Source of the DNA: Actinomycetota bacterium
Lineage (GTDB): Bacteria > Margulisbacteria > Marinamargulisbacteria > GCA-2716485 > GCA-002719695
Direction: 5' to 3'
Assembly: GCA_002697535.1 (NCBI GenBank)
Contig: NZWE01000008.1
Coordinates: 5,796-69,795 of the forward strand
Length of the DNA stretch: 64,000 bases
The position numbers were made by a program, and so were the translations under genes. Of this stretch, positions 27,396 to 50,441 are shown one piece after another (the first letter of the stretch is position 1; every line of letters starts with the position of its first letter). Under the pieces are notes generated by a model. It had not been told where the DNA came from, did not search any database, and saw only the letters and a program-made list of their open reading frames with translations.

Positions 27396-27398
27396 CCA

Positions 27399-27806: not shown

Positions 27807-27814
27807 TATCTAGT

Positions 27815-30288: not shown

Positions 30289-30291
30289 TCT

Positions 30292-32919: not shown

Positions 32920-35273
32920 GAAAGGAATCTACACTACCGTTTATCCTTAACCTTGTAAAACGCAAGCAATATTTAGAAGCTCTTGATCGCTATAAAGCAT
33001 ACTTAACTCATCATCCTGATCATTTAGCACTCATTTTAATTGATCTATATAAAACACTTTATCAAGATCTTAACGATATTAATATTAGGCTCATTATTTC
33101 AGAATTATATATTAAATATCATTATTTTTCTGATGCTTGTATTGAGCTTGAAGAAATGTTTGAAATTAATCCCAATTTTTCTCAAACTTACTTTTTGTTA
33201 AGTAAAGTTTATACTCAAAATATGGAAATAGATACTGTTTGTCGCTTATTTGAAGAAGCCTTTCAATCTGGTATTCGTGATTCTGTTATTCTTGATTTTT
33301 TACCAAAAATTTATCTTGATACAAATGATATCTTTAAAGCAATTTCATTTTATGAATCTCTTCTAGAAGAAAAGGATTGCCTTCCTCATCAAAATAAAGT
33401 TTTAGCAGAACTTTATAAACGTGTCGGTAAATATGAAAAATGTGTTTGTATTTATCAAGATCTTGTTAAATCTGACCCTCAATTTTTAAAAGATGCCTGT
33501 TTATTACTAGAAAATATTTTAGTGTCTCATGCTAACTTACATTTTGTTAGAGAAGCGCTCCTTCATTTTTATATTACTTCTTGTGAACCTGATCAAGCCA
33601 TTGAGCATCTTACTTTTTTATGTTCATCGGCTGATTTTTCTCTTCAAAAATCTCAACCTATCTTTTTGAAAGTTATTGAAATTTACCCTTCACATATTCC
33701 AACACTGTTACTTTATTGTGAATGCTTAATTAAGGAAGAATCCATTACTGATGCTATTCCTCTTTTATCTGAATTGGCTACTTATAATCAAGATACGTTT
33801 ATTGAAACCGCTATTAATCTTATTCGTGAATCAAATCCAAATCATTTTGGATTTAATTTATTTTTAATTAATCGATTTATTACTCTTAACAACTATCAAG
33901 CTGCTCTTGATATTATTTCTACTTTAATTGAATCTCATTATACTCATGATATTTTTGATGATTTAAAATCATCTTGTCTTCAAATTTGGGATTCTGAAAC
34001 ATCAACCATTAAAATTCAAGCTAGCTATAATCTCGCTTTAATCTTATTTCATGAAGAAAAGCTTATTGACTCTATTAACTACTGTAATAACTGCGGAGAT
34101 GATCATCTTGATGCGATATGCTTAAAAATCTCTATTTTAATCAAACAAGATAATCTGATTGAAGCTAAAAAACTTGCTCTTCATCATCTTAACCAACATA
34201 TCAATTCAAAAAAATTACATGAGTTAATGTACCTTATTCACCAAAAGAATACAGCCTTACAACATGCTCAAACATCTATCCATTCTTTTAATTCTATTAT
34301 CAGTGATTTATCTTTAGGTAATACACACGAGGCTATTGATACGATCCAGCAAATTGATTCTGATCATTTTGATTATAATATTGCTCAACTTCTATTAATC
34401 CGTTGCTTTTATACTGAACAAAAGATTGATCATTCGCTCAATATACTTAATCAACTATCCCCTTACCTACGTGAAAAGGTTCCTGACCTTTATATTGATT
34501 CCCTTTTCTTAACAGCCATTTGCTTATATACATTAGGCCACTTTGAAGATGCCTCTAATATGCTTAATCAAATTGAAGAAATTAATATATCTCATTCTTT
34601 TACAAAATCCATGAAACAATATTTATATCGTATACCCTTTTCACAACATAAAGGGTTTGCTATTACAGGATTAATCAATGTTTGGAATAATTCTATTACT
34701 TATACAGCCATTCAGAATCCCGAAGAAGCCTTATCATCAAAAACGACACAATCAACAATTAGTTTTGGACTTAATCATAATGAAAAAGCATGTTTATATA
34801 TGATCAGAAAAAATTATAATAGTGCGCATTCTGAATTTAATTTATCATTACAACTTGATCCCTCCTTAACTATTTCTTATTGTAATTATTCCTTATATTT
34901 TACAGAAACTAACTCTTATGAAGAGGCTTCTTCTTCTATTGATAAAGCCAAAGAATCTAATAAAAATTTGGATATTATTTTTATCAATGAAGGTCTGTTA
35001 TATTATAAACAAGGCAAGCTTCAAGATGCGCTTATTTCTTTTCAGGAAGCCATTCGACTTAATCCAAAAAATTTACATGCTCAGTTTAATTTAGCTATGA
35101 TTTACTTTTTAAATAATAATATCGAATTATGTTTTCAATACCTTAAATCGCTATTACCTTATGGCTTATTATTTATTCCTATTCATCAATTTCTACATTA
35201 TTTAGAAGATGATCCGTTTATTATATCCCATTGGATTTCTCCTCAAAAGAATTATGATGTCTCTATTTTATAA
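32904..35273 (+). CDS. TPR-repeat protein
   Basis: Repeated 34-aa TPR-like units, for example ALISFQEAIRLNPKNLHAQFNLAMIYF. Translationally overlaps both neighbours. Confidence 0.6.
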   Translation: MQVQVRKESTLPFILNLVKRKQYLEALDRYKAYLTHHPDHLALILIDLYKTLYQDLNDINIRLIISELYIKYHYFSDACIELEEMFEINPNFSQTYFLLSKVYTQNMEIDTVCRLFEEAFQSGIRDSVILDFLPKIYLDTNDIFKAISFYESLLEEKDCLPHQNKVLAELYKRVGKYEKCVCIYQDLVKSDPQFLKDACLLLENILVSHANLHFVREALLHFYITSCEPDQAIEHLTFLCSSADFSLQKSQPIFLKVIEIYPSHIPTLLLYCECLIKEESITDAIPLLSELATYNQDTFIETAINLIRESNPNHFGFNLFLINRFITLNNYQAALDIISTLIESHYTHDIFDDLKSSCLQIWDSETSTIKIQASYNLALILFHEEKLIDSINYCNNCGDDHLDAICLKISILIKQDNLIEAKKLALHHLNQHINSKKLHELMYLIHQKNTALQHAQTSIHSFNSIISDLSLGNTHEAIDTIQQIDSDHFDYNIAQLLLIRCFYTEQKIDHSLNILNQLSPYLREKVPDLYIDSLFLTAICLYTLGHFEDASNMLNQIEEINISHSFTKSMKQYLYRIPFSQHKGFAITGLINVWNNSITYTAIQNPEEALSSKTTQSTISFGLNHNEKACLYMIRKNYNSAHSEFNLSLQLDPSLTISYCNYSLYFTETNSYEEASSSIDKAKESNKNLDIIFINEGLLYYKQGKLQDALISFQEAIRLNPKNLHAQFNLAMIYFLNNNIELCFQYLKSLLPYGLLFIPIHQFLHYLEDDPFIISHWISPQKNYDVSIL

Positions 35274-37761
35274 AATTAGTATTCTTTTATTATTATGCAG
35301 CGTTTCTTGCTTAGGTCGTTCGATGACGTTAGTTAGCGACTCTCTTGTTTTTGACGATTATCTTAGACGTGTTGATGCAACTGGTAATGTTCGTTTAATT
35401 CTTGATGAGGCCACTATCATGGGTGATCATTTAATGTTTTATGTTGATGATAATATGGTTATTAGCTCAGGTAACGTATTGATTAAACGTAAGGATAATG
35501 AATTTAATTCAAGTTCTCTTATTATTAACTTAGATGAAAAAAAATTACATTTAAATGATATTAAAATTGGTATTACCCCCTTTGGACAAAAGGGGAAAAT
35601 TTATATCACTATTAAAAAACTTATTGATACCCAGCAACGTAAAAAGGGTTATTTTGCTCGTTTTACAACCTGTAATGCTATTAAACCTCATTACTACCTT
35701 TCGAGTTGGCGTTTTCTATATTACCCTGACAAAAGCATTCATTTATTTGCTTCTCATTTTCGAAATGATTTATCATTTTTTCCTTTTAATATTATTCCCT
35801 TCCCTGTTCCTTTAATAGAATGGATCCCTATTCCTTACTATTACTATCAACTAGGGAAACGAAAAATAGTATTAAATTTTCCGACTATTGGGGAGAAAAA
35901 AAATTCGGGTTGGGGTTTATTTGTTCAGAATAAACTTGATTATCGTTATCATAATGATAAAGAATCATCATTATTTTTAGATTGGTACCAGGCTAAAGGA
36001 AATCGATCAGGAGAATGGGGGTATGGTCTCCATCATTATTATGGCAATAATTCAATTAATGGCGATATATACTTCTATAATTATGATTACAAGCTGGGTA
36101 ATGATAATAAAAAAAACCTTACGTATAAACTGAATCAAGAACTTTCTTTTAAAGATACCACACTGAAAGCGAGTTATTCATTAGTTGATGTAGATGAACG
36201 TATTAATTCTACGGGATCGTCTCATTCTATTAATAAATCTGTTTCATTGGACCATTCTCCTAACTCGTTTCCTTTATCAACATCCTATAAAGAAAATCGT
36301 AATATTTCTAACCAGTTTCAATCACAAAATTTTATCTTTAAAAAAGATTCTTTGCATCAAAACTCCTCTTTCTCATTAGATAAAAAACATTACGCTAGTA
36401 CCAATCGTTATACGACTCAATCTAAGCTCTCTCATTCTATTACCTTTCCTTTTAATATTAACATCAAACAGGACTTTAATTTTAAGGAGTATGACTATCG
36501 TGATACAGAAAGCTCTCCGGAACAAACATTAACATATGCCTCTTCACTATCAACAACATTACCACATAATATTGCGATGTCTGTTCAGATGAATTATTTA
36601 TATGATTTAGATCAAGATAGTGTTACAAGTGATATTAAAAGTGGAGTTAATAACTATTTATATAAACTTCCTGAAATTAAATTTTCTCAAAATCAGACAT
36701 TCTTTAAATCAAAACCTATTTATACCTTTCAAACCAATTCTATCGCTAGTCTTGGTAACTATCGTGAAGTTCGTTATTTTGCTGATGATCCTGATTATTC
36801 CTTGCCAGAAACCCTTAATGTTCTTGAACCCAATATGTATTTTTTCCGTCAAAAGTTTTCTAAATCTGTTGCGTCCTTACCTGCATCATCTAAATTAACG
36901 TTTAGTTCAACTTATGAGCAATATATTTTTAAAAATGAACATAAATCTCTTTTTGAAGGAGATGCTCAATATAGTTTAAATTATAATATTGCCTTAACTT
37001 CAACATTTTTATCCTTTATAAAACATTCTTCATCTTATTCAAGACAACATGGGCATAAAGATAATAACTCTCCTTTTTATGCATTTAAAAAATCTTTGTC
37101 TGAAAGTAATCGTTTAACCGAAAAAATTACGTTGTTTTATAATAAGAAACGATCGATATTATTTCCTTTTACACTTGATTTTAACTGGGATCATAGCACC
37201 TCTTATAACTGGCTATTATCCTCAAATCCTTACTCTAATTATGTCTCAAAACTTACGATGTCACTTAACAAAGTTTATAAACTGACGGCACAATCATCTA
37301 AAAATCTTAATAGATCTTGGAAAAAAGATAATAATTTATTTACGCCGTTAATGCTTACATTAAGTGGTAAAACAAAAGATAAACTTAATTTTAATTATTC
37401 CTTACACTTAAACATGAATGATCTTGTTTTTGATCAAACCTATATTGTTAATAACTCTGATTTTAATTTTAATTTTCCTCTTGGTAAAAACCCTGATTTC
37501 CAATGGAAACTTAAAGGATATTTTAAATATATTGAGCCAGGAAAAGCATTGCAGCTAAAGCATTATCAATTTCAAAAATTTTCTATTATTAAGGATGAAC
37601 ATGAAAGACAAATTGAAATTGGGTATAATAAAACTATTAAAGAATTCTTTTTTAAATTTCATTTTAAAATGTTTTCAAAAGATCCATTGATTATACGTAA
37701 AACTAATAATGTTGTAAAATTTGAGGGTCGTCTTAATAAAAAATCACAAGAAAGGTTTTAA
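35254..37761 (+). CDS. LPS-assembly outer-membrane protein, LptD/OstA-like
   Basis: Signal peptide, then an OstA-like N-domain (DATGNVRLILDEATIMGDHLMFY ... SSGNVLIKRKDNEF) and a long Y/N/S-rich beta-barrel-like region. Start set at the ATGATG at 35254. Confidence 0.55.
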   Translation: MMSLFYKISILLLLCSVSCLGRSMTLVSDSLVFDDYLRRVDATGNVRLILDEATIMGDHLMFYVDDNMVISSGNVLIKRKDNEFNSSSLIINLDEKKLHLNDIKIGITPFGQKGKIYITIKKLIDTQQRKKGYFARFTTCNAIKPHYYLSSWRFLYYPDKSIHLFASHFRNDLSFFPFNIIPFPVPLIEWIPIPYYYYQLGKRKIVLNFPTIGEKKNSGWGLFVQNKLDYRYHNDKESSLFLDWYQAKGNRSGEWGYGLHHYYGNNSINGDIYFYNYDYKLGNDNKKNLTYKLNQELSFKDTTLKASYSLVDVDERINSTGSSHSINKSVSLDHSPNSFPLSTSYKENRNISNQFQSQNFIFKKDSLHQNSSFSLDKKHYASTNRYTTQSKLSHSITFPFNINIKQDFNFKEYDYRDTESSPEQTLTYASSLSTTLPHNIAMSVQMNYLYDLDQDSVTSDIKSGVNNYLYKLPEIKFSQNQTFFKSKPIYTFQTNSIASLGNYREVRYFADDPDYSLPETLNVLEPNMYFFRQKFSKSVASLPASSKLTFSSTYEQYIFKNEHKSLFEGDAQYSLNYNIALTSTFLSFIKHSSSYSRQHGHKDNNSPFYAFKKSLSESNRLTEKITLFYNKKRSILFPFTLDFNWDHSTSYNWLLSSNPYSNYVSKLTMSLNKVYKLTAQSSKNLNRSWKKDNNLFTPLMLTLSGKTKDKLNFNYSLHLNMNDLVFDQTYIVNNSDFNFNFPLGKNPDFQWKLKGYFKYIEPGKALQLKHYQFQKFSIIKDEHERQIEIGYNKTIKEFFFKFHFKMFSKDPLIIRKTNNVVKFEGRLNKKSQERF

Positions 37762-38447
37762 TGAAATACTTTATTATTGTTTTGTCTTTATTACTATTAA
37801 CAGGATGTGCTAGAACTATTTCGTCTGGTGGTGACGTTATTAATTTAGAATTTAAAATCTCCACACAAGGTCCTATCAATACTAGTAACACTATTTATCT
37901 TCTTGTTTTCTCATCAACTCAATTAATTCTTTCTGAAAAAGCAACCCTTGATGATTACTTTATCTTTCCTGGTAAATACTTTGACGATTCAAGATTAGCT
38001 ACTTTACCTGGTAAAGATATTAATTATTACTACACTTCTTATTTTAAATATTGGAAACAGTTTCTTTACCTGACTAATAATTCTATTGAACTTACTACAG
38101 CCTCTGCTAATAGTTTTGATGCTTCTATTGCCACTATTGAAGATCATCAATCTATTGAACCTTCTCAGGGCTTTGAAGGTATCCAGTCCATTCATGCAGA
38201 TACACTTACGATTACTGTTGATATTACCCAATTAGGTTACGAAGAATCTGATACCGTTTATTTTAGTATCTTAACATTTGAAAAAGATACTTCTTCAGAA
38301 GCTGGCATTATTAAAGATTTTTTAACGAATGATTCATCTCATGTGATTGATCTTACTAAAAATCAACTTAATTCTGGAAATAATTCTGAGAATACATCGC
38401 TTGATACTCACCACGACATTGTTCAATGGCAATACAGAGTTTATTAA
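37761..38447 (+). CDS. lipoprotein of unknown function (positional LptE candidate)
   Basis: Lipobox LLLTGC at residues 11-16. Its ATG overlaps the lptD-like stop (TAATG). Confidence 0.6.
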   Translation: MKYFIIVLSLLLLTGCARTISSGGDVINLEFKISTQGPINTSNTIYLLVFSSTQLILSEKATLDDYFIFPGKYFDDSRLATLPGKDINYYYTSYFKYWKQFLYLTNNSIELTTASANSFDASIATIEDHQSIEPSQGFEGIQSIHADTLTITVDITQLGYEESDTVYFSILTFEKDTSSEAGIIKDFLTNDSSHVIDLTKNQLNSGNNSENTSLDTHHDIVQWQYRVY

Positions 38448-39939: not shown

Positions 39940-39960
39940 CTGAAAACTAATTGTTTTCAG
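39940..39960. terminator. bidirectional hairpin terminator candidate between the convergent lnt and fliG-like genes
   Basis: CTGAAAAC-TAATT-GTTTTCAG forms a perfect 8-bp stem with a 5-nt loop, followed by TTT on the plus strand and TTCT on the minus strand. Confidence 0.5.
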
Positions 39961-39968: not shown

Positions 39969-40595
39969 TTAAAAATCAAAGTTTTCAACTTCAGTTTCTT
40001 GCTCTTGATTTGTCTCTGCTTGCTTTTTTTCTTCTTCAATCTCTTCTGCTGTTTTTAATACAATCAAATCAAATAATCGTTTAAATATACGTTCAGCCAT
40101 CGGCGTAGCTTCTACTTTACATGTTTGATACGCTGCTATTTTTTCGTCTGCCATATGTTCTTGGATAGCGTTTCCCAATTCTTCTTCAACATATTTAAAG
40201 AAAAATGCAATCATCTGGTTTTCTTGAGAACTCAAATGTGATGCTATGGTTTCTAATGACCGATAATTTTCCGGAAAGAGCTTCTCTTCTGGGATCACTT
40301 CTTCTTCCTCAGGTTCTTCTTCTCTATCTTCCATTTCTTCTTCTTTTTCTTCTTCTTCTTCTGAAAATAAATCGTCTTCACCACTATCTGATATTTCAAA
40401 TTCTTTTTCGCTAACTCCTTCTAATACTAATGTTAAAAACTCTCCCATTTCTTCATCATTAATCGTTGGTACATCATCTAAAGTTGAGGTTAATATGGTA
40501 GCACTTTCCTCTGATAAATGTTTTAAAACATCCGTACTCTTTTCTTCAATTAAACTAATTAATAATTGAGATTTTTGCTTTCCTGTTAAGTTCAT
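39969..40595 (-). CDS. FliG-like protein, truncated (N-terminal domain plus an acidic insert; no C-terminal torque domain)
   Basis: LTGKQKSQLLISLIEEKSTDVLKHLSEE matches the FliG N-domain signature (LTGxEKAAILLxxLGEExAAxVxKxL). Followed by an E-rich tract (EEEEEKEEEMEDREEEPEEEE). Total 208 aa, compared with about 330 for FliG. Start overlaps the fliF stop. Confidence 0.6.
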   Translation of the reverse strand: MNLTGKQKSQLLISLIEEKSTDVLKHLSEESATILTSTLDDVPTINDEEMGEFLTLVLEGVSEKEFEISDSGEDDLFSEEEEEKEEEMEDREEEPEEEEVIPEEKLFPENYRSLETIASHLSSQENQMIAFFFKYVEEELGNAIQEHMADEKIAAYQTCKVEATPMAERIFKRLFDLIVLKTAEEIEEEKKQAETNQEQETEVENFDF

Positions 40596-42220
40596 GATGC
40601 AACCTCTTCTAGCACAAAATCTTCTTCTAATTCAGTTTGAGCTTCTTCAGTTTGCTCATTGCTATCGTCCTCTTTTTCCTTTAACCAATCTTCCATAATA
40701 GCCGCTAATTTTTCTGGAAATTCGACTGCTAATTCTCTTAATTTCTCTAATTTTGTATCATTATCAAGATCTTCGTCTTCTTCTAAATCACCATCATCCA
40801 GATTATCAAATTCATCTTCATTGATATTTTCAACAACTTTATTTTCTTCACGTCGTGCTTTTCGTATAAATCGTATTACAAATATAATGATGGCAATACC
40901 CACTATAATGCTTGCTGCTAACAAAAGATAATCTAATAATCCTTGTCTAGTATGCTTGGCTATTAATGCTTTTTTCTCGCTCTCTGTATAAATAGGAAAC
41001 TCAGCAATACTTAATTGTATGGAATCTCTACCTCTGATATACCCTACTGATCCAGCTACTGTTTGAAATACCTGCTGCTTAAAGGCTTTATCTACAAAAA
41101 TATCATCATTTAATCCATCAATTACAATACTTATGGTTTGTCTTTTTATATCAACTATATTTCCATTTTCAAGTGGTCCTAAATCTGATGTTACCTCAAC
41201 TTTAAACGATGCAATTGGCATAATTCCAAATAATTGTTTTTCTACTTTTTGTTTTAACGTATTCTCAAAATTCCACTTTATTTCAAACCATTCTTGTATA
41301 CGATCATAATTAGGGATTATAGGACTTCCCATTGCCTCTTCTCGACTAATGGCTGCTAAAATAGGGGCTCGGCTTTTTTCTTCTGCTACATATGTTCCGG
41401 CTCGTTTTGATGCTAATCTTTCAAAAAGACTATCCGATAATAGATTTCCCTCTGTATCAATAACGGATACATTTTCTACTTGCAAATTTTCAACTGCATT
41501 TGACACTAATTGAATAATACTAAAGACAATTTCATCCGTTATCTCACTTCCTTGAATAATTCGTATAATAATCGATGATGTCACAGGCGGTTGAGTTACT
41601 GTAAATAAACGCTGTTCTGGTAATACAATTTGTACTTTTGCTGATTCAATAATATCTAATTGTGTAATTGCTTTTTCTAATTCGCCTGACAAGGCTCTTA
41701 AAAACCGAATCCGTTTATCAAATTCTGTTACGCCTAAGGTTTGAGCATCATCTAATAATTCATACCCACTCTTTGCTTTTCCTGATGGAATTCCTTTAAT
41801 GGCCAACAAATTTCTTGCTAGTTCCGCTTCATCTTCTGCTACTAAAATTGTAAATTTTTGACCATTTTGTTCGGTTTTAAATTGTATTTCTGCTAAACTA
41901 ATTTCTTTTAAAATTTTGCTCGTATCGCCACCATCTAACTGACTAAATAATTTTACATACTTTATTTTTTTTCTACTTTTCTTACTTTTATCTACTTTAT
42001 TTTTTGATACCATTATATTTTTGTTACTATGCTTACTAACGGATTTATTTGACTCATTACCTCTTCCTAACATTGTTAGCAATATCACAATAATAATAAC
42101 GCCTGCTATTAATCCCCCAATAATGAATTGTCTATTTGACTGTTTTGGAGGCAATGGCTCTGGTTGGGAAACTGGTTCCTCTAATGTGGGTTCTTCTTGA
42201 ATTATTTCTTCTTCAGCCAT
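40592..42220 (-). CDS. fliF: flagellar MS-ring protein FliF
   Basis: N-terminal TM helix, YscJ/FliF-type periplasmic domains (YVKLFSQLDGGDTSKILKEIS ... ILVAEDEAELARNLLAIKGIP), a second TM helix and an acidic C-terminal FliG-binding tail. Confidence 0.9.
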   Translation of the reverse strand: MAEEEIIQEEPTLEEPVSQPEPLPPKQSNRQFIIGGLIAGVIIIVILLTMLGRGNESNKSVSKHSNKNIMVSKNKVDKSKKSRKKIKYVKLFSQLDGGDTSKILKEISLAEIQFKTEQNGQKFTILVAEDEAELARNLLAIKGIPSGKAKSGYELLDDAQTLGVTEFDKRIRFLRALSGELEKAITQLDIIESAKVQIVLPEQRLFTVTQPPVTSSIIIRIIQGSEITDEIVFSIIQLVSNAVENLQVENVSVIDTEGNLLSDSLFERLASKRAGTYVAEEKSRAPILAAISREEAMGSPIIPNYDRIQEWFEIKWNFENTLKQKVEKQLFGIMPIASFKVEVTSDLGPLENGNIVDIKRQTISIVIDGLNDDIFVDKAFKQQVFQTVAGSVGYIRGRDSIQLSIAEFPIYTESEKKALIAKHTRQGLLDYLLLAASIIVGIAIIIFVIRFIRKARREENKVVENINEDEFDNLDDGDLEEDEDLDNDTKLEKLRELAVEFPEKLAAIMEDWLKEKEDDSNEQTEEAQTELEEDFVLEEVAS

Positions 42221-42309
42221 ATTTAATAATTGTTATATGATATATATGTTTATTTTACATTAGACTTACTACATAAGTCACGTAAATAGACTGATTTATT
42301 ATTAATTTT

Positions 42310-42873
42310 TTAAATAGCTAACTGCGTTATTTCTTTAAATGTTTGCGTAGCAGATGATAAAACGGTTGTTGCAAATGATACGGCTAAATTTAACTTCATT
42401 GTCTCAACACTCACTTCATCTAACGAAACTTTTCCTTCAATATATTGCTCTGTTAAATCATTTACTCGATATTCCATTGTACTAATACTTTCTAGCACCT
42501 CTATTGATTTATCTAATAACATTTGAAATGGTGTTACTTCTACACGATTCGTACTCAGATAAACATTTTCATCATCTTGTCCTTGAACATTTTGACGTCT
42601 ATTTTGATTATTTTGAACTTCACGAAATATGTTTTCTATTTCTTCCGGTGCTAATGCCTGCGCTAACAGCTCTCTATTTTCTTCTTCTGATACAATTCTT
42701 GGTTTTTGATTAAAGTTATAATCAATTCCATCGACATCATTTGGATTAACCCCATTTAATGCTTCATCAAAAAAGTTTTGAAATGGTACCTTTGGCATCA
42801 TTTCTTTATTAACAGCATTTGCCTTTTGAGGTTTCATTTGCATCATATCCAAAGGGTCTAATTTCTTATTCAT
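42310..42873 (-). CDS. fliE: FliE-like basal-body protein with a long N-terminal extension
   Basis: The C-terminal 75 aa (…FQMLLDKSIEVL…VSVETMKLNLAVSFATTVLSSATQTFKEITQLAI) align to the FliE pattern. At 187 aa it is much longer than the usual ~100. Canonical position after flgC. Confidence 0.65.
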   Translation of the reverse strand: MNKKLDPLDMMQMKPQKANAVNKEMMPKVPFQNFFDEALNGVNPNDVDGIDYNFNQKPRIVSEEENRELLAQALAPEEIENIFREVQNNQNRRQNVQGQDDENVYLSTNRVEVTPFQMLLDKSIEVLESISTMEYRVNDLTEQYIEGKVSLDEVSVETMKLNLAVSFATTVLSSATQTFKEITQLAI

Positions 42874-43319
42874 TTTAATAATTCCATTGTAGACTGGTAC
42901 ATCGCTTTTGTCAGTTTAAATGCATTAATATTTGCTTCATACATAGCCTCTGTGTGCTTTAGTGTTACCATTTCATTTGGCATATTAACATTCGGCAAAT
43001 AAAAATATCCATCTTCATCGGACTGTGGCGCCGCTGGATCAAAGTATCGACTAAATGGCTCTGTACTTCGTTCAATATCAACTACCTTTACACCAATATC
43101 GGAGGCTTCTAATACTAAATATTTTTTTTGGTAGGGCAATCCTGTTTCTTCATCTTTTAAAGTCATTAAGTTGGCAACATTTTCTGCCGTCATTGTCATT
43201 TTCATCCGCTGAGAAACAATACCACTCATATTGATCTGGAATGCATCTTCTAATGTACTTAACTGTGCGGCTATTGGTGATAGTAATATTAAACTGATAA
43301 TGATTACTTTAATCAACAT
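42870..43319 (-). CDS. flgC: flagellar proximal rod protein FlgC (with a hydrophobic N-terminal extension)
   Basis: QINMSGIVSQRMKMTMTAENVANLMT (rod N-motif) and C-terminal VNMPNEMVTLKHTEAMYEANINAFK. ATG at 43319, 2 nt after the flgB TAG (the track start is a GTG at 43322). Confidence 0.85.
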   Translation of the reverse strand: MLIKVIIISLILLSPIAAQLSTLEDAFQINMSGIVSQRMKMTMTAENVANLMTLKDEETGLPYQKKYLVLEASDIGVKVVDIERSTEPFSRYFDPAAPQSDEDGYFYLPNVNMPNEMVTLKHTEAMYEANINAFKLTKAMYQSTMELLK

Positions 43320-43321
43320 CA

Positions 43322-43708
43322 CTAGCGTTTTCCCATTGTAGCTATCTGCCGATAGGTATCAAACCGTTTTTTATATAACGTCAAGTAACTTGCTTGTAAA
43401 TTTCTGTTTTTTGCCATGCTCGCTGACATATGCTCTAATAATACTTTTTTTCTTAACTCACTATTATTTGGAATAATTTGATTTAATTCTTCCTGGTCTT
43501 CTGGATACAGAACCGGCTCAAAGCCAGGAGTGGTAATATTAGCAATATTATACGAAAAAAGCGCATGCTTTTTTGTTGCTTTATAAATTGCTTTTTCTAA
43601 TTTTTGATCAGCTGGATACAATGCCAATTTACCTTCATTTTGCTGTGCCCATATCGATCCACTTAAATATATAAGTATACTTATGGCTATTAATTGATAT
43701 TTATTCAT
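43322..43708 (-). CDS. flgB: flagellar proximal rod protein FlgB (with a hydrophobic N-terminal extension)
   Basis: Rod motif SYNIANITTPGFEP. Position upstream of flgC. ATG overlaps the fliA stop by 8 nt. Confidence 0.8.
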   Translation of the reverse strand: MNKYQLIAISILIYLSGSIWAQQNEGKLALYPADQKLEKAIYKATKKHALFSYNIANITTPGFEPVLYPEDQEELNQIIPNNSELRKKVLLEHMSASMAKNRNLQASYLTLYKKRFDTYRQIATMGKR

Positions 43709-44423
43709 TCTGTTTCAATCCTTCTAATCGATGTTTTAATCTATCTAAAACATTCATATGAATACGACATATTCGACTTTTAGATAACTTTAAATGCTTA
43801 GCAATTTCTACTTGCTTAAGTCCATGTATATAAAATAATTCTATAACATCTTTGTCGGGATGTTCTAGATCATAAATCTCTTTCCATAAAAAATCATAAT
43901 TTTCATCCACAACTTCTATCTCAGGGTCTTTTGTTCCTTTACTTTCAGATATATTTTGCTTCATATCGCCTGATATATAATGAACAAACGTCGCTGATTC
44001 AACTGCCTCATTAACCTTTTCTTTAGGCTTACTATTAGACTCATTTATAGTATCTTCGATAAACTCTGATAATGTTTCTTGTAATTTTTTTCTTCTGTCA
44101 CGGTACTCTTGAGGAATTCGTGAATTCCATTCATTACGAATTGAATCCAATATTTCACCTCTAATACGATAATAAGCATAGGTTTGAAATTTAGTTTTCA
44201 AGTCTTTCTTAAACCCTTTTTTAGCTTTTAATAATCCTTCAACTCCCCAACTAATTAAATCTCCATAATCAATACAACTAGGAACTTTCCCTGCATGTAA
44301 AATTTTTGATGCAATGTTTTTTATTAATGGCATATGCTCATTAATAAACTCTTCAGAATGCCCTCTATCTTTTCGAGCATCATTATATTGTAGTTTAGTT
44401 ATATCAACGTTTTTCTTTGACAT
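43701..44423 (-). CDS. fliA: RNA polymerase sigma factor, FliA/sigma-28 family
   Basis: Region 2 FQTYAYYRIRGEILDSIR and region 4 HTH LKQVEIAKHLKLSKSRICRIHMNVLDRLK. Embedded in the flagellar operon. Confidence 0.8.
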   Translation of the reverse strand: MSKKNVDITKLQYNDARKDRGHSEEFINEHMPLIKNIASKILHAGKVPSCIDYGDLISWGVEGLLKAKKGFKKDLKTKFQTYAYYRIRGEILDSIRNEWNSRIPQEYRDRRKKLQETLSEFIEDTINESNSKPKEKVNEAVESATFVHYISGDMKQNISESKGTKDPEIEVVDENYDFLWKEIYDLEHPDKDVIELFYIHGLKQVEIAKHLKLSKSRICRIHMNVLDRLKHRLEGLKQNE

Positions 44424-44426
44424 TTT

Positions 44427-44759
44427 TTATTCCCTAAAATATTCATCTAAGTTTAATAAATCTTGATCTGCTAAATATTTAGATAGTTGCCTTGCATAAA
44501 TTACATTCATTAATTCATTTGATTGTTTTGTATCATAAATGGCATCCTCTTCAATTTCAATAACACTTGTTGATTTAAATAACGGTTGTACAAATATTTG
44601 TTGAATAAATAATGCTTGCATTTTTTTCATAGCATCTTCCTCACTGCCAATTTCATAATTTGGATTTAATAACTGATAATAACTCATATCAGGCATCTGT
44701 CCTACTACACTAGCTGTGAATATTAACATCAAACTTATTATATAAAAAATTGTCTTCAT
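44427..44759 (-). CDS. rod-binding protein (FlgJ N-terminal-domain-like)
   Basis: 110 aa located directly after flgI. AMKKMQALFIQQIFVQPLFK ... MNVIYARQLSKYLA resembles the Rod_binding domain. There is no muramidase domain. Confidence 0.45.
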   Translation of the reverse strand: MKTIFYIISLMLIFTASVVGQMPDMSYYQLLNPNYEIGSEEDAMKKMQALFIQQIFVQPLFKSTSVIEIEEDAIYDTKQSNELMNVIYARQLSKYLADQDLLNLDEYFRE

Positions 44760-45826
44760 AATATTTCTAAATCAGCTACAAGAGCTCCTGACTCTTTTAA
44801 TGCTTGGATAATATTAATTAATTCTTTAGGTGTTACACCTATTTGGTTTAATGAATTCACTAAATTTGATAAGGTATCAGCTGCCTCTAAATAAACTAAC
44901 GGTTTTTTTGATTCATTTATTGTAATAGGATCTTCTTGTGCCCCAAATAACCCTCCGGCATCATTATTAATTTTTATTGAAACGCCTCCATGAGTAATTG
45001 CAACAGGAAATAATTTAACATTTTCTCCAATAATGATCGTTCCTGTTTTTGAATTCACAACAATTCGTGATGATACATCAGGTGTAATTTCTATATTCTC
45101 AATTTCAGATATAGCTGTTATTAAATCGGAAGACTTTAAATCTTCTAATGGAATTTTAATGGTATTGCCATCTATTGCTTTGGCGCCCTTATAGCCTTTC
45201 TCTTGTAATGCTTTCATCGCTTTTGCTACTGTAAAGAAATTTGGTCTATCTAAAACCATTGTAATATTATGTTGATCTGTAAACGTTACTGGCACCTCAG
45301 CTTCTACTATAGCTCCATTTGGTATTGAGCCTACCGTTGCTTGATTTCTATAAAGCTGTGTTGTCGCAGATACTTCACTTGCTCCATCAATGACTATATT
45401 TCCTTGCGCTACAGCATATGTTTTCATGTCAGGTCCCATCATTGGGGTCATAATTAATGTTCCCCCAATCAAAGAACTTGCATCTCCTAATGCTGATACC
45501 GTTACTGATATACGTTGACCCTTTTTTAAAAATGATGGTAAATTGGCTGTTACTAAAACAGAGGCTGCATTTCTAGCATTTAAATTTACGCCACTTATTG
45601 AAACTCCCATTTTTGATAATAAGTTTCTTAAAGCATTATTTGTTAAACCGGCAGCTCTAGAATCACCACTTCCTCTTAGCCCCACAACAATCCCATACCC
45701 TGCCAATTGATTGTCTCTTGATTCAATTAATTTCCCAATATCTTTTAATCGTACAGTATTAGACTGAGAATAAGATAGACTCCCTAACAAACTTAACATT
45801 ATTAAAATAGATGTTAAAATTTTCAT
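44756..45826 (-). CDS. flgI: flagellar P-ring protein FlgI
   Basis: Signal peptide followed by RLKDIGKLIESRDNQLAGYGIVVGLRGSGDS, with FlgI-like sequence conserved along the full length. Confidence 0.95.
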   Translation of the reverse strand: MKILTSILIMLSLLGSLSYSQSNTVRLKDIGKLIESRDNQLAGYGIVVGLRGSGDSRAAGLTNNALRNLLSKMGVSISGVNLNARNAASVLVTANLPSFLKKGQRISVTVSALGDASSLIGGTLIMTPMMGPDMKTYAVAQGNIVIDGASEVSATTQLYRNQATVGSIPNGAIVEAEVPVTFTDQHNITMVLDRPNFFTVAKAMKALQEKGYKGAKAIDGNTIKIPLEDLKSSDLITAISEIENIEITPDVSSRIVVNSKTGTIIIGENVKLFPVAITHGGVSIKINNDAGGLFGAQEDPITINESKKPLVYLEAADTLSNLVNSLNQIGVTPKELINIIQALKESGALVADLEIL

Positions 45827-45827
45827 A

Positions 45828-46436
45828 CTAAAACAACCAATTAAATACTTTCGTCATAATACCAGGAGATTGCTTTGAAGCTACTACCCCACTTCCATGT
45901 ACTGAAATTTCAGCTTTAGCAACTTGATATGAATAGACTGAATTCTTTGGAGAAATATCTTGAGGCCGAATAACACCTGCTACTCGAATTGTCTCCAACT
46001 CATCATTGACTTTTACTTTATGAATTCCTTCAACATATAAATTTCCATTATCTAATATTTCAGTGACTACTGATGAAACGACCGCCTTAACCTGACTTCT
46101 ACGCGAGGTTTGTCCCGATCCTTCATACTTATCATCACCATTTAACCCATATTGTCTTTTTTGATTTAACGTTTCATTTCCTAATAAATTTCCTACTTGC
46201 TCCCAATTATTTTGAATTGAAGCGCCTAACCGCGATTCTCTTTCTGTACTGGTTGATGCTTGCTGTGCCGCTGATGTTGATTCTGACACATAAATCGTAA
46301 TGATATCACCAACTCGGATTAGCCGTCTGTTAACACCATAAAACGGTGTTTTCGCATTATCAAATAACGAATCTGCGACAACCTCCATAGGCCATAGCAA
46401 ACTAATTAGAACTAATAAGAATATGTTTTTTATCAA
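45828..46436 (-). CDS. flgH: flagellar L-ring protein FlgH
   Basis: SLFDN ... RVGDIITIYVSESTSA ... LYVEGIHKVKVNDELETIRVAGVIRPQDI, typical FlgH. The signal peptide has no lipobox Cys. Confidence 0.9.
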   Translation of the reverse strand: MIKNIFLLVLISLLWPMEVVADSLFDNAKTPFYGVNRRLIRVGDIITIYVSESTSAAQQASTSTERESRLGASIQNNWEQVGNLLGNETLNQKRQYGLNGDDKYEGSGQTSRRSQVKAVVSSVVTEILDNGNLYVEGIHKVKVNDELETIRVAGVIRPQDISPKNSVYSYQVAKAEISVHGSGVVASKQSPGIMTKVFNWLF

Positions 46437-47121
46437 TTACTTTTCCTCTTAATATTTTTTTTGTTTCTGTCTTCATTCGAATCATATCACCTATCATCCC
46501 TGAATCTAATGCTGTAACATCCGATTTAATCTCAAAGCCTGATGATTTGATAACTAATTTTACATGTTCTCCTTTTTGCACATCAGGAACAAGTTCAATC
46601 CATCGATCTGAAAATGCAATTCCTTTTATCATCGATCGTTTTGTTTGCTTTCCTATAATAATATCTTTATTAAAAATATAATCTTCGGATCGTGATGTTA
46701 ACTTAATTCTTTTTTGAGTAATATCATTATTAGAAATAATATCATTTGTTTTTATTTTTCTATTAGATACATAAACATCTCCATAGACGCTGGTTTCTAA
46801 AGCACATTTTTCTGTTTTAATAATTGTATTTTCTTCTGATAAAAATGCCGTATCTAATATAATCTTTCCCATTAAGGTTTGTGGTTTTGCTAAATCTACA
46901 AAGATATAAAAGACATCTTTAGAAATATCATTAAAAATTTCTGAGTTTTTTATCTCGACATTCACGTCTGGATTTTTTACATCTCCCATTTGTCCTAGTA
47001 TTTGATTTTCAATTTCAGTCTCTAATATTGTACTAGAAAAATTAGCAACACTATATTGCTTTGCAGATAGATTAACTGAAAAAAATACTGCTAATAAAAT
47101 TACCCAAAACACTCTCAACAT
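46402..47121 (-). CDS. flgA: flagellar P-ring assembly chaperone FlgA
   Basis: Signal peptide and a C-terminal SAF/FlgA pattern GEHVKLVIKSSGFEIKSDVTALDSGMIGDMIRMK. Position between flgG and flgH. Confidence 0.75.
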   Translation of the reverse strand: MLRVFWVILLAVFFSVNLSAKQYSVANFSSTILETEIENQILGQMGDVKNPDVNVEIKNSEIFNDISKDVFYIFVDLAKPQTLMGKIILDTAFLSEENTIIKTEKCALETSVYGDVYVSNRKIKTNDIISNNDITQKRIKLTSRSEDYIFNKDIIIGKQTKRSMIKGIAFSDRWIELVPDVQKGEHVKLVIKSSGFEIKSDVTALDSGMIGDMIRMKTETKKILRGKVIDKKHILISSN

Positions 47122-47124
47122 TAT

Positions 47125-47928
47125 TTATTTTCCTATATCACTCGCTGCCTTTAACATTGCATCTGCTGATTTAATGGTCGAGTTTACTAACTCAAATGTT
47201 CGCTGACATAACAACATATTCATCATTTCTTCAATGATATTAACATTTGAAAACTCTAATGCTCTTTGCTTTACCATCCCAACACCATTTTCACCAGGAA
47301 TTGTTAACTCTGGATCGCCTGATGCAGCTGTTGCTCTAAATAAATTTTGACCAACGTCTTTTAATCCTCCTGCATTTGGAAAATTCACTAAATAAACCTG
47401 ACCTATTTCTGTTGGCTGGACAGTATTTGCTGTTTGAGCAAACACCTCACCTGCTTCATTAATAATAATTTCAGTCGTATTAGCTGGTATTGTAATAGCT
47501 GGATCAAGTGGATGCCCATTTGGATTTAATACATTACCTTCTGCATCTGCATGCAGGTTTCCAGCCCTACTAAACCCATAGGTTCCATCTGGCATTAAAA
47601 ATTGTAAAAATCCTTTTCCTTCTATAGCAACATCCAGTTGTTGATTTGTCATTTCAATTGATCCGGTTGTAAAGTCTTTTGTTACATCAACAATACGTAT
47701 TCCTTGACCATACTCTAAGTATTTCTTACGTTTTCGTCCTGCACCCGGTGATACCTCATCAAACTCTGAATAGGCTCTTTCTAATACTAATGGAAATAAA
47801 CTCTCCATTTCCATACGCTTCTTTTTATATCCAACCGTTTGCGCATTCGCAATATTGTTTGCAATAACCTGCATTTTTCTTTCATAAGAAAAATATGCTG
47901 ATTTTGCCATAAATAACTGTGATAACAT
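47125..47928 (-). CDS. flgG: flagellar distal rod protein FlgG
   Basis: N-terminus MQVIANNIANAQTVGYKK and C-terminus LEFSNVNIIEEMMNMLLCQRTFELVNSTIKSAD. The N-terminus is canonical, with no hydrophobic extension. Confidence 0.9.
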   Translation of the reverse strand: MLSQLFMAKSAYFSYERKMQVIANNIANAQTVGYKKKRMEMESLFPLVLERAYSEFDEVSPGAGRKRKKYLEYGQGIRIVDVTKDFTTGSIEMTNQQLDVAIEGKGFLQFLMPDGTYGFSRAGNLHADAEGNVLNPNGHPLDPAITIPANTTEIIINEAGEVFAQTANTVQPTEIGQVYLVNFPNAGGLKDVGQNLFRATAASGDPELTIPGENGVGMVKQRALEFSNVNIIEEMMNMLLCQRTFELVNSTIKSADAMLKAASDIGK

Positions 47929-47951
47929 GTTGCTTTCCTCCTTTTATGTTT

Positions 47952-48773
47952 TTATGGACTCGATAATGTTGCCGCTGTATTTAACGCTCTATTCATTAAA
48001 TGAGCTGTTTTAACACTGGCATCATATGCATTTTTTGCCATTAATATATCCCCAGTAATCCCCTTTAAGACATTATTTTGCTCTAAAGCTCCCTGAACAA
48101 CCGCATAATGCTCTGGGCCTTCTTCTACGGGAACATCTTTTGTCAAAATAAAATAAGATCCATTTAATGATTCAAAGGACTGCATTGCCGCAAATGTTTT
48201 GAATACTACAATTTTCATACTTGAAACAGGCTGTCCATCAACATAAATAAGCCCTGATCGTGATACTAATATATCTTCACCTTCCGGCAAAATTATTTCA
48301 CCTTCTTCTCCTAATACTGGATAATTACCTGATAATGTTACCAATCTTCTCTTTGAATCTAATAAAAAACGGCCATCTCTTGTAAATGCAATCGTACCTG
48401 GTAACTGCACCACAAAAAAACCTCTACTATTAGCATCAATATAAAAATCTAGCTCTTTATTGGTTTCAATCATCGGACCAGCTCTCCATCTAAAAAAAGG
48501 CAAATAATCTAAATCATAGCCGTCTTCTGTCTTTTTTCTAGAATTATAAACACCTGTCTCAATAAATCCTGGCGTTCCAACATTTATCGTATAAAACATA
48601 AAGTTTGTATAATGCACCTGAAACATTCTCATAGCTTCCAATGTTGTTGACACTCCTTCATCTTGCACCTCACCAAAATTGGTATATCCATATAATGATG
48701 ATGTAACACTTAAAATCATTAGTAATATACCCATCGTGACATTTCTATAAACATTAAGTTGTTTTTTTATCAT
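47952..48773 (-). CDS. flgF: flagellar rod protein, FlgF-like (with a hydrophobic N-terminal extension)
   Basis: Rod motif TINVGTPGF and C-terminus VVQGALEQNNV ... AKNAYDASVKTAHLMN. Upstream of flgG. Confidence 0.7.
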   Translation of the reverse strand: MIKKQLNVYRNVTMGILLMILSVTSSLYGYTNFGEVQDEGVSTTLEAMRMFQVHYTNFMFYTINVGTPGFIETGVYNSRKKTEDGYDLDYLPFFRWRAGPMIETNKELDFYIDANSRGFFVVQLPGTIAFTRDGRFLLDSKRRLVTLSGNYPVLGEEGEIILPEGEDILVSRSGLIYVDGQPVSSMKIVVFKTFAAMQSFESLNGSYFILTKDVPVEEGPEHYAVVQGALEQNNVLKGITGDILMAKNAYDASVKTAHLMNRALNTAATLSSP

Positions 48774-49135
48774 TTTCTCTTCTTTCTTTTTAATTTTTTC
48801 TTTTTTGCCAGTCTATCTAATCGATACACAAACGATAATACTTCTGCCACCATATTATATAAATTAGGCGGTATTTCAGAATTTATAGCTAACTTTGATA
48901 ACAACTCCACTAAAGAAGAATCTTCATAAAATGGAACCTTATTATCTTCGGCAACCTTAAGTATCTTTTCCGCAATTTGACCTTTTCCAAACCCTGTAAT
49001 TTTTGGTGCCTTACTATTTTTCGAATCATACTTTAAAGCAATAGCTTTTAAATTATGCTTATTTTTAACATCAAGTTGATGTATATTTCGTTTTAATTTT
49101 ATATTTTTTGGCTTATCACTTTTTTTTGCATTCAT
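48770..49135 (-). CDS. stand-alone FlhB C-terminal-domain protein (YlqH / EscU-YscU-HrcU family fragment)
   Basis: AIALKYDSKNSKAPKITGFGKGQIAEKILKVAEDNKVPFYEDSSLVELL ... VAEVLSFVYRL aligns to the part of FlhB_C after the NPTH cleavage site. No TM domain. Confidence 0.75.
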   Translation of the reverse strand: MNAKKSDKPKNIKLKRNIHQLDVKNKHNLKAIALKYDSKNSKAPKITGFGKGQIAEKILKVAEDNKVPFYEDSSLVELLSKLAINSEIPPNLYNMVAEVLSFVYRLDRLAKKKKLKRKKRK

Positions 49136-49138
49136 AGT

Positions 49139-50326
49139 TTATACTTCCGTACTAATTCGTTTCATATTATTTAAATTAAATGTTGGTAATAATAACTTTT
49201 CGATATTGATGATCTTTTTTAATGATTGCACTTGAGTTACTTCATAATTTAATTCTTCCATAGATTTTTTTAGTTCAGGAACTTCATCTAAAACAAATTT
49301 TTGAGTCAATTCATTACTGCTATAAATCTTATATGCCATTTTTTTATCATTAATTTCAATAATGATCGTTAAGTCCCCTAAATCTGATGTTTCACACTTA
49401 ATCACAATTGTTGTGTTATTAGGATTTACTTTTCTCTTATTCTTAGGATCCTTACTTACCATAACCTCAATATCTTTCAATGCTTTTGCCATAGGATTTG
49501 GAATCATCCAATAATGAAAAAACTCCTCCGAAATTTGTTGATTTGAAGGACTTTTAGATAAAATTAATTGTGTCAATAAAACATCATGAAAGGCTGACGA
49601 ATCTTTTTCAACACTTTTAATTATTTTTTTTAAATTATCGGCTATTAAGTTATTAGATGATGATAACTTTTTATTAATCCCTTTTAAAAAATCTTGTAAA
49701 TATCTTAAATCTTGCACTAAGTCAGATTGCTTGTTGATCAACCCCTTAATATCTAAATTATCAGCATGCTTTTTCATGGTCTTTGTATCTTCTAAAAAGT
49801 CATCTAAAAACCCCGCAACCCCAGCGATCAATGACGGATCTAAAAATGCGCTAAAACCAGGCAATCCATTTTTTAATCCCTGCAACCCCTGAGACAATCT
49901 TGATAAACTTCCTGATAACTGAACATTATGCGATAAAAACTTTGAAATCAAATCCACAGCCTTAGCATTACCATCAAGTCCTTTTGAATAAGCAACGACA
50001 CTTGCCTCCAACTTGTTCCCCTTCTTACTCCCCTTAACCGCCTGCTCTATTAAATCAAAGGCTTCTGGAGATGCTTCGACTCCATACAATAACATAGTTG
50101 TTAAAATCTGCTTATTTTCAGGTGTAACCGCTTTTTGCAAATTTAATAAGGCCTGACTAATATCTTGTGAATTTAATATACGAACATACTCTGGTGTTTT
50201 TTGTAACGGCTGATCAGCACTCTTAATATTTGATTGATCACTATTTATATCCTGAATACTTTTAGGTAACGATTTTGAGTCGGTTGTCTGCTGAGGCTTA
50301 TTAACATCTCCACGTATATTTTGCAT
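49139..50326 (-). CDS. FliK-like hook-length-control-type protein (tentative)
   Basis: The C-terminal block IKCETSDLGDLTIIIEINDKKMAYKIYSSNELTQKFV...LKKSMEELNYEV resembles the Flg_hook domain (LxPxxLGxVxVxL...). Pairing with a FlhB_C-only gene is common in other genomes. Confidence 0.45.
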   Translation of the reverse strand: MQNIRGDVNKPQQTTDSKSLPKSIQDINSDQSNIKSADQPLQKTPEYVRILNSQDISQALLNLQKAVTPENKQILTTMLLYGVEASPEAFDLIEQAVKGSKKGNKLEASVVAYSKGLDGNAKAVDLISKFLSHNVQLSGSLSRLSQGLQGLKNGLPGFSAFLDPSLIAGVAGFLDDFLEDTKTMKKHADNLDIKGLINKQSDLVQDLRYLQDFLKGINKKLSSSNNLIADNLKKIIKSVEKDSSAFHDVLLTQLILSKSPSNQQISEEFFHYWMIPNPMAKALKDIEVMVSKDPKNKRKVNPNNTTIVIKCETSDLGDLTIIIEINDKKMAYKIYSSNELTQKFVLDEVPELKKSMEELNYEVTQVQSLKKIINIEKLLLPTFNLNNMKRISTEV

Positions 50327-50441
50327 CCAGCTCCCTTTTCTTAACTCAATAAAGCTTGCAAAATTATATCAAAAAGTTTCTTAAATTTGAATAGATAGCT
50401 CTTTTGAATTACTTTTTTAAAAGGTGGTAATTTTCATTAAA

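Follow-up and report, generated by a model that had tools for sequence, protein, structure and literature searches.

A conserved, reduced flagellar operon of Candidatus Marinamargulisbacteria that may encode a non-rotary, partly Sec-routed envelope apparatus

The flagellar block and its conservation

We analysed a 64-kb stretch of contig NZWE01000008.1 (the window; GC content ~31%), which carries a block of flagellar genes on its minus strand at positions 39969–50326. The block consists of 14 back-to-back open reading frames (ORFs), none of them disrupted, which form one compact operon. An earlier note, made from the sequence alone, had listed 14 flagellar genes here, and their order was confirmed by the ORFs and by the Pfam and NCBIfam profile searches from which we took the gene identities. 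In the direction of transcription the genes are fliK-like, flhB-C-only (encoding the C-terminal domain of FlhB), flgF, flgG, flgA, flgH, flgI, flgJ-N-like, a sigma factor gene, flgB, flgC, fliE, fliF and a short fliG. Adjoining genes overlap by 1–35 nt or are separated by gaps of 1–23 nt, with a single larger gap of 89 nt ahead of fliF. The operon encodes an MS ring, a short FliG, a complete rod, a rod-cap-like protein, P and L rings with their chaperone, a FliK-like protein together with an FlhB C-domain, and a sigma-28-like factor.

The first gene (49139–50326; all block genes lie on the minus strand) encodes a FliK-like protein of 395 aa without signal peptide, whose residues 297–367 match Pfam Flg_hook below the cutoff (E=3.7e-6); orthologues in the related loci L005 and L007 gave stronger Flg_hook matches than the window copy. 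It is followed by a stand-alone FlhB C-terminal (post-NPTH) domain of 121 aa (48770–49135), which aligns with Pfam Bac_export_2 profile positions 262–335 only and matches TIGR00789 (flhB_rel) at E=1.9e-25. All members of the rod set are present. The distal rod protein FlgG (47125–47928; three Pfam rod domains, 172 bits to E. coli FlgG) has a canonical N-terminus; it and the proximal rod proteins FlgC (42870–43322; TIGR01395, E=6.7e-28) and FlgF (47952–48773; TIGR02490, E=1.1e-19, aligned from residue 64) are clear cases. The matches of FlgB and FliE are weak but syntenic and carry family motifs. FlgB (43322–43708), also a proximal rod protein, matches TIGR01396 at E=0.0025 and has the conserved rod motif YN(I/V)AN..TPGF, and FliE (42310–42873) matches Pfam FliE over residues 112–187 (E=1.2e-4), behind an N-terminal extension of ~90 aa.

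The ring genes were readily assigned. FlgA (46402–47121; Pfam ChapFlgA, E=4.9e-23) is the periplasmic chaperone of the P ring, FlgI (44756–45826; Pfam FlgI, E=2.5e-101) the P-ring protein and FlgH (45828–46436; Pfam FlgH, E=6.6e-46) the L-ring protein; FlgA and FlgH carry Sec signal peptides. There is no lipobox Cys in FlgH of this genome: the first 35 aa are without Cys here and in 20/34 species (Cys in 14/34), and in the Cys-less species FlgH, unlike enterobacterial FlgH, is apparently not a lipoprotein. The MS-ring protein FliF (40592–42220; YscJ_FliF, E=2.2e-45) is invariant in its RBM region and conserves the C-terminal tail ...P..LA.LME.WL. The last gene (39969–40595) encodes the short FliG of 208 aa, made up of an N domain, an acidic linker of ~40 aa and one ARM (middle) domain; Pfam recognized the FliG N domain only (E=1.5e-5).

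Two further genes needed the support of their families. The window copy of a 110-aa ORF (44427–44759) had no match of its own in Pfam or NCBIfam. Because 10/26 of its orthologues match PF10135 Rod-binding (best E=9e-6), and because Saganbacteria have an ORF with a Rod-binding annotation in this place, we take it for a rod-binding (rod-cap) protein of the FlgJ-N type. PDB profile searches for this ORF and for FlgB were marginal or negative, and their identity was settled by NCBIfam, synteny and the family-wide Pfam matches. The sigma factor (43701–44423) has Pfam Sigma70_r2 and r4 domains and belongs to the FliA/WhiG (sigma-28-like) family; it matches TIGR02479 at E=4.4e-35 with 121 bits against a trusted cutoff of 189.6, and E. 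coli FliA matches its orthologues at 2.8e-22.

The exact FlgI protein is also encoded on contig PAVJ01000013.1 of the Tara Oceans metagenome-assembled genome (MAG) GCA_002713025.1, and again on nearly identical contigs of several Tara, ENA and JGI assemblies. The nearest named FlgI homologues belong to single-cell genomes of Candidatus Marinamargulisbacteria, and homologues 52–98% identical were found in Marinamargulisbacteria and Margulisiibacteriota. In a species census, one genome per GTDB species was scanned with two FliF peptide patterns, which gave 41 loci, all of them from Marinamargulisbacteria or Margulisiibacteriota, although a few carry Rickettsiales or Actinomycetota labels. The order of the 14 genes, mapped with jackhmmer, is invariant in all 41 species-representative loci, and convergent lnt is usually the next gene. 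Relatives with FlgI 53–60% identical and a GC content of 30–49% have the same genes in the same order, with a block that stops right after the short fliG. The carriers are planktonic marine and freshwater MAGs.

Some loci depart in detail. Inside the block, a tandem extra FlgG (no signal peptide) was observed in L033, L034, L035, L046, L048 and L050, and a tandem extra FlgF (with signal peptide) in L005 and L027; the FlgG duplicate of L050 is identical in sequence and possibly an assembly artefact. Several public MAGs with the Marinamargulis block are labelled Rickettsiales or Actinomycetota (among L020, L021, L040 and L043), and one FlgI homologue is labelled Thermoproteota archaeon. These three labels are likely taxonomic mislabels or due to mis-binning.

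Comparison of the window with the species in L019 yielded ratios of non-synonymous to synonymous substitution rates (dN/dS) of 0.03–0.25 for all 14 genes, lowest for FlgG (0.026), FlgC (0.035) and FlgH (0.039); the flanking genes pabC and lnt gave 0.10 and 0.22. The block is a retained unit under purifying selection and no random fragment. The earlier note had allowed for a relic, that is, a non-functional, decaying remnant of an ancestral flagellar regulon. Many flagellar genes are indeed missing and several proteins score below curated family cutoffs, but all 14 frames are intact and identically ordered in 41 species with 30–49% GC, and their dN/dS is on a par with the values of the flanking housekeeping genes or below them. 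In addition, the genomes of these marine bacteria are small and streamlined (drafts of 0.5–2.0 Mb) and not expected to keep 10 kb of junk. Because purifying selection acts on all 14 genes, decay is ruled out, and we give the relic almost no credence.

Predicted signal peptides of rod proteins and a shortened FliG

Flagellar rod proteins are textbook substrates of type III export. In the block, the N-termini of FlgB, FlgC, FlgF and the rod-binding protein start with a basic residue and run through a hydrophobic stretch to a site of the type A/G/S-x-A/G/S, after which comes the canonical D0 helix. Signal peptides were scored by a hydropathy and −3/−1 heuristic and not by SignalP; we required a basic n-region, a hydrophobic h-region of at least 9 residues and small residues at −3 and −1. 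The pattern was found in 34/36 orthologues of FlgB, 38/39 of FlgC, 33/37 of FlgF (hydrophobic N-terminus in 35/36) and 29/34 of the rod-binding protein. In pattern frequency, these four rod-associated proteins are indistinguishable from the undisputed Sec substrates FlgA (32/34), FlgH (32/34) and FlgI (33/34). FlgG (0/40), FliE (1/39) and FliK (0/28, with a hydrophobic N-terminus likewise in 0/28) are without the pattern, and FlgB, FlgC, FlgF, FlgG, FliE and FlgJ of E. coli, used as controls, were all negative by the same heuristic. FlgB, FlgC, FlgF and the rod-binding protein are thus predicted to carry Sec-type signal peptides, in agreement with what the first reading had noticed on the rod proteins. 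FlgG, FliE and FliK would still need a type III gate because they have no signal peptide.

The NCBIfam alignment of FlgC begins at residue 27, so that residues 1–26 are extra. Extension of ORFs in AT-rich DNA was considered as an artefactual source of the signal peptides and rejected. The signal-peptide-like segments persist in a relative with 49% GC (L005), and the frame of the N-terminal extension is open in 34–38 of 36–39 species. Moreover, the long-form starts are translationally coupled to the upstream stop; in the window as well as in L005, the start of flgC shares 1 nt with the stop of flgB. In an exhaustive FlgC search, 27 of the best 150 cluster representatives had signal-peptide-like N-termini, mostly the closest matches. 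A side finding concerns L063, a contig of JGI 3300045994 with a flgB-flgC-fliE-fliQ operon, whose alphaproteobacterial-style FlgC (P0252) has a hydrophobic extension of 27 aa before the canonical 'MDPL...' start. This may be a miscalled start or an independent signal-peptide-bearing FlgC beside a type III gate gene.

The FliG of the block is short in all species. A profile built from four orthologues aligned with residues 4–159 of Salmonella FliG only (E=2e-7) and with the middle domain of H. pylori FliG; nothing aligned past Salmonella residue 159. All 29 database homologues are 118–299 aa long and mostly annotated hypothetical, and across the loci the stop-to-stop frames of fliG measure 165–384 codons, the longest of which were judged by length alone. 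In an AlphaFold model (mean pLDDT 67.6), helical domains at residues 1–63 and 112–195 are joined by a strongly acidic, disordered linker (69–104). Foldseek matched the model to FliG-N with the FliF C-terminus (5tdy_D, rmsd 2.1 Å) and to an ARM middle domain (4qrm_D, rmsd 2.3 Å); the matches were almost all FliG entries, with weak E-values because the model consists of two small domains. The truncation of FliG that had been noticed earlier therefore recurs in the profile, the homologue lengths and both structural comparisons. The protein appears to be truncated by design, without the stator-facing C-terminal torque domain, and is predicted to be still able to dock on FliF, whose C-terminal helix that binds FliG-N is conserved.

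Acidic stretches were also seen elsewhere. The poly-acidic linker of FliG measures 35–75 aa, and the FliF tail is very acidic as well. Both traits, like the non-hydrophobic FliE extension of ~90 aa, are Marinamargulis-specific when compared with Saganbacteria.

Saganbacteria and the flagellar genes outside the block

Two FlgC representatives and one FliI match led to contigs of Saganbacteria/WOR-1, namely the Logan contigs L064 and L065, and L066 in GCA_001771695.1. Their block has the same 14 genes in the same order between housekeeping flanks, with a FliG of N and M domains only, but it comprises 17 genes and continues with fliH-fliI-fliJ after fliG. Their FliG (165–168 aa) has no acidic linker, whereas that of Marinamargulisbacteria has one inserted, and FliE is canonical (106–112 aa) instead of N-terminally extended by ~90 aa. 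FlgB, FlgF and the rod-binding protein of L064–L066 are canonical and have no signal peptide, in contrast to the Marinamargulis copies. For FlgC the situation is mixed: a signal peptide is predicted in L064 and L065, as in Marinamargulisbacteria, but not in L066. To judge from these sequences, the apparatus is characteristic of Candidatus Marinamargulisbacteria, and the Saganbacteria/WOR-1 block appears to be an older form of it. The differences suggest that export moved towards Sec while the type III ATPase was being lost. A FliI search from a Saganbacterial seed gave 120 matches, all Saganbacteria/WOR-1-type and at least 75% identical, and was uninformative on Marinamargulisbacteria. Saganbacterial FliI is unusually conserved in itself (at least 75% identity over 120 database clusters).

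We then looked for flagellar genes beyond the block. A Pfam scan of all other ORFs of at least 110 aa revealed none in the 64-kb window, nor was any found in the 9.6 kb of contig upstream of it. With E. coli K-12 flagellar and Che proteins as phmmer queries against all ORFs of the window and of 44 related loci (~10 kb around the block), components of the block were all that matched, and there were no matches for FlhA, FliH/I/J, FliM/N, FliO/P/Q/R, MotA/B, FliC/D/S, FlgD/K/L/M/N or Che. None of the FlgF/G-family members matched FlgE best, so no hook gene is hidden among these paralogues. The Pfam families of the injectisome secretin SctC, needle SctF and SctD ring were not found in the window, and FliF scored higher as FliF than as SctJ. 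The statement of the earlier note that hook, filament, switch, stator and ATPase genes are missing beside the block thus holds for all the DNA covered. As side observations, the sole MotA/ExbB-family gene of the window (26778–27395) lies in an ExbB-ExbD-TonB cluster, and a complete operon for the Na+-translocating NADH:quinone reductase (nqrA-F and apbE) is found at 17061–23810 (minus strand); the latter implies a sodium-motive force, which would be relevant if a stator or ion-driven export took part.

In the literature mentioning Marinamargulisbacteria, or Saganbacteria and flagella, we found no main-text discussion of flagella in these lineages, and the supplements of the FlgV paper held no Margulis sequences. 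The sole published treatment is a supplementary note with a table of KEGG orthology (KO) calls, in which the genes are read as ordinary polar flagella (Matheus Carnevali et al. 2019, PMC6349859, Supplementary Data 2). The table covers three Marinamargulis single-cell amplified genomes (SAGs), AAA071-K20 (82% complete), AG-410-N11 (74.5%) and AG-343-D04 (65%). For AAA071-K20 it lists FlhA, FlhB, FliO, FliP, FliQ, FliR and FliN as 'reliable', and for AG-343-D04 it lists FliP and FliN. FliG is flagged 'check_length' or absent in the Marinamargulis SAGs. FliH, FliI, FliJ, FliM, FliL, FlhF and FlhG were undetected in all three, as were FlgD, FlgK, FlgL, FliD, FlgM, FlgN and FliW (PMC6349859). FlgE is 'reliable' in one Marinamargulis SAG only (PMC6349859); this sole call may be the FlgG of the block, which scores 80 bits to E. 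coli FlgE.

For Riflemargulisbacteria the table gives a full flagellar set; for Saganbacteria it gives gate, ATPase, FliN, rod, rings and FlgE, whereas FliG, FliM, FlgK/L and FliD are absent (PMC6349859). Saganbacteria may also have a filament-less, switch-less system. FliM, FlgK, FlgL and FliD are absent in the 3 Marinamargulisbacteria and in ~26 Saganbacteria but were found in Riflemargulisbacteria and Melainabacteria by the same pipeline (PMC6349859). Metagenome contigs were also scanned for the FlhA motif MPGKQM(A/S)IDAD in the form of an AT-biased DNA pattern. Among the 80 loci listed there was no Marinamargulis locus; their operon layout looked like that of other taxa, with no similarity above ~55% to Marinamargulis genes.

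The earlier note had also counted the export gate among the missing parts. This is true of the window and the 44 loci but apparently not of the lineage as a whole, given the gate KO hits in AAA071-K20 and AG-343-D04 (PMC6349859). One could conceive of a gate-less machine, a periplasm-spanning conduit or strut on the FliF ring that is built wholly from Sec-exported rod and ring proteins. It would agree with the Sec signals predicted on the four rod-associated proteins besides FlgA, FlgH and FlgI, with the loci searched and with AG-410-N11, a carrier of the block for which the KO table lists no gate gene (PMC6349859). Moreover, Ruthmannia eludens, a Marinamargulis symbiont with a near-complete genome, was reported to be without canonical secretion systems, but our 41-locus scan returned no record named Ruthmannia. 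The strict no-gate reading fails because a gate is reported elsewhere, in two independent SAGs, and because FlgG, FliE and FliK look like type III substrates. FlgG forms the bulk of the rod, and there is no other known inner-membrane route for these three proteins. Furthermore, basal-body structures show the rod to be templated by FliPQR and FliE. We regard a gate-less machine as quite improbable.

Proposed apparatus, known systems and neighbouring genes

We lean towards the view that the block encodes the structural core of a reduced, conserved, probably non-rotary apparatus that derives from the flagellum, spans the envelope and is partly Sec-routed. The non-rotary, filament-less interpretation rests on the FliG that is short everywhere, the undetected FliM, the deleted ATPase tail of the operon, the four proteins with predicted Sec signals and the undetected hook-associated and cap proteins. 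The broad proposal of the earlier note, a reduced or repurposed basal body, is supported by the same features. FliF and the short FliG would assemble around the export gate, through which FliE, FlgG and FliK would exit on ion-motive force with no ATPase. Sec would carry FlgB, FlgC, FlgF and the cap protein into the periplasm, as it does FlgA, FlgH and FlgI, and from there they would be added to the rod. Once complete, the rod and its P and L rings would span the envelope without being turnable by a canonical stator, and the complex could serve as a secretion conduit or an envelope-spanning scaffold or tether rather than a propeller. The fliHIJ genes would have been deleted from the operon end in the Marinamargulis lineage. 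Salmonella mutants without the ATPase reportedly still export on the proton-motive force, so the type III route can in principle work without FliHIJ.

A more specific version is put forward tentatively. It holds that the proximal rod (FlgB, FlgC and FlgF) and the cap are built from Sec-exported, cleaved subunits, that only FliE, FlgG and FliK pass through an ATPase-less gate, that the resulting complex of MS ring, rod and P/L rings does not rotate but acts as a trans-envelope conduit or scaffold, and that Saganbacteria, which still have the ATPase and at most a signal peptide on FlgC, represent an earlier stage.

Several points weigh against this interpretation of the block. The very strong constraint on FlgG, FlgH and FlgC (dN/dS 0.03–0.04) is equally expected of a working bushing and drive shaft. 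The signal peptides were called heuristically and could be uncleaved anchors, and we know of no precedent for rod subunits joining from the periplasm. The usual roles of FliK with the FlhB C-domain and of a sigma-28-like factor are the control of hook length and the expression of late genes. No Marinamargulis gate gene sequence was recovered, and a present gate combined with absent ATPase, switch and filament rests on KO calls in three incomplete SAGs. The KO table misses FliE, FlgB and FliK, all of which are present but divergent, and scores flagellin absent in every genome, even fully flagellated ones, so that this row is uninformative; MotA and MotB are not among its rows. Given such false negatives, the genomes could still encode hook, junction, cap, filament or FliM proteins of divergent sequence.

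The same facts would agree with an ordinary flagellar locus in bacteria that have a complete, rotating, filament-bearing flagellum, the missing genes being dispersed or too divergent for KO and Pfam. Gate genes and FliN are, after all, reported elsewhere in the Marinamargulis SAGs (PMC6349859), the N-termini of FlgG, FliE and FliK are still of the type III style, public data contain flagellins of 'Ca. Margulisbacteria', and the Na+-NQR operon of the window would suit a sodium-driven motor. Nevertheless, the only fliG adjoining fliF has no torque domain in any species, and in the KO table FliG is of wrong length or absent. FliI is highly conserved and yet absent in all three SAGs, which incompleteness alone would produce with a chance of about 0.18 × 0.25 × 0.35 = ~0.02, and fliHIJ are gone from the very operon end where Saganbacteria keep them. 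A working type III pathway would give no reason for four rod-associated proteins to gain Sec signals. Finally, the pipeline that missed FliM, FlgK, FlgL and FliD in Marinamargulisbacteria and Saganbacteria did find them in Riflemargulisbacteria and Melainabacteria. Taken together, we consider a complete flagellum unlikely.

The apparatus that we favour has partial counterparts among known systems. With the basal body of Salmonella and E. coli it shares the MS ring, the five rod proteins, the P and L rings with FlgA, FliK, sigma-28 and Sec export of FlgA, FlgH and FlgI. It differs in that the enterobacterial rod proteins and FlgJ have no signal peptide and leave by type III export, FliG (~330 aa) has the torque helix, fliHIJ follow fliF-fliG, FlgH is a lipoprotein and FliE measures ~100 aa. 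Stand-alone FlhB C-domain proteins (TIGR00789, KEGG K04061) are known, e.g. H. pylori FlhX and B. subtilis YlqH. They are likewise ~90–120 aa long, equal the post-cleavage C-subdomain of FlhB and are often encoded beside fliK; however, they occur in fully flagellated bacteria with a full-length FlhB, whereas here the domain lies beside a divergent FliK with no hook detected.

Filament-less basal bodies of Buchnera aphidicola and other endosymbionts have reportedly been proposed to be protein exporters and not motors. The gene set of Buchnera is cut to basal body and export apparatus, without flagellin, but FliG/M/N, FliHIJ and hook genes are retained, and the rod proteins of Buchnera are exported by the type III route as usual. 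In Marinamargulisbacteria, by contrast, the ATPase and FliM are undetected, rod proteins are Sec-routed by sequence, and the carriers are free-living plankton instead of host-restricted. P/L-ring relics, which flagellar ejection or disassembly is said to leave behind, are similar in having FlgH/FlgI rings in the outer membrane without hook or filament; they are disassembly products of complete flagella with full gene sets, though, and not genetically reduced. Since reduced flagellar systems such as that of Buchnera are already known, the Marinamargulis case is a variant and not a new category.

In the searchable literature we found no published description of Sec signal peptides on FlgB, FlgC, FlgF or FlgJ, of a conserved torque-domain-less FliG, or of this block. 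A bacterial class in which three of the five rod proteins and the cap carry Sec signals would show that the axial structure need not be assembled by way of the central channel. If the specific version is true, flagellar axial proteins would for the first time be seen to have changed from one export pathway to another. WOR-1, the L064/L065 lineage and Marinamargulisbacteria would then offer natural intermediates for a machine that changed its assembly route while losing its ATPase. That a torque-domain-less FliG is conserved in two candidate lineages beside the Cyanobacteria suggests that a non-rotary descendant of the flagellum is widespread among free-living bacteria, with a bearing on flagellar co-option, as for injectisomes. 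The finding would also correct the published inference that these abundant marine bacteria swim by polar flagella (PMC6349859).

Housekeeping genes flank the block, with lepA-pabB-pabC on its upstream side and convergent lnt on the other. Within the gap of 115 bp ahead of the fliK-like gene, the best sigma-70-like promoter match is TTCAAA-17-TATAAT with an extended −10 TG (50363–50391, minus strand), a consensus match only; promoter-like matches in this region are no more numerous than in shuffles. The sigma-28 promoter consensus occurred once in the window against 0.74 matches expected by chance. The genes lnt and fliG-like converge, and their stops lie on either side of an AT-rich hairpin with an 8-bp stem and a 5-nt loop (CTGAAAAC-taatt-GTTTTCAG, 39940–39960). 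The hairpin facing lnt that had been reported as a terminator is thus present in the sequence but was not called by a consensus terminator scan; a bidirectional terminator is possible from its sequence.

Also convergent to the block are, besides lnt, a 789-aa TPR protein (32904–35273) and two ORFs of 850 and 228 aa without Pfam match (35209–38447, plus strand), with LptF/G close by. The TPR protein, both ORFs and lnt keep this position in several Marinamargulis species (L001, L006, L007 and one JGI contig). Further away, the ExbB-ExbD-TonB cluster continues with a 652-aa ORF without Pfam match and a small SLH-domain protein (26778–30780 in all, plus strand). Two more large ORFs on the plus strand, of 1188 aa (57124–60690) and 774 aa (5822–8146), had no Pfam match at E≤0.001. 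A 495-aa protein (11219–12706, plus strand) matches both domains of the lipase maturation factor family (LMF1; E=4e-60 and 1e-40), which is known mainly from eukaryotes.

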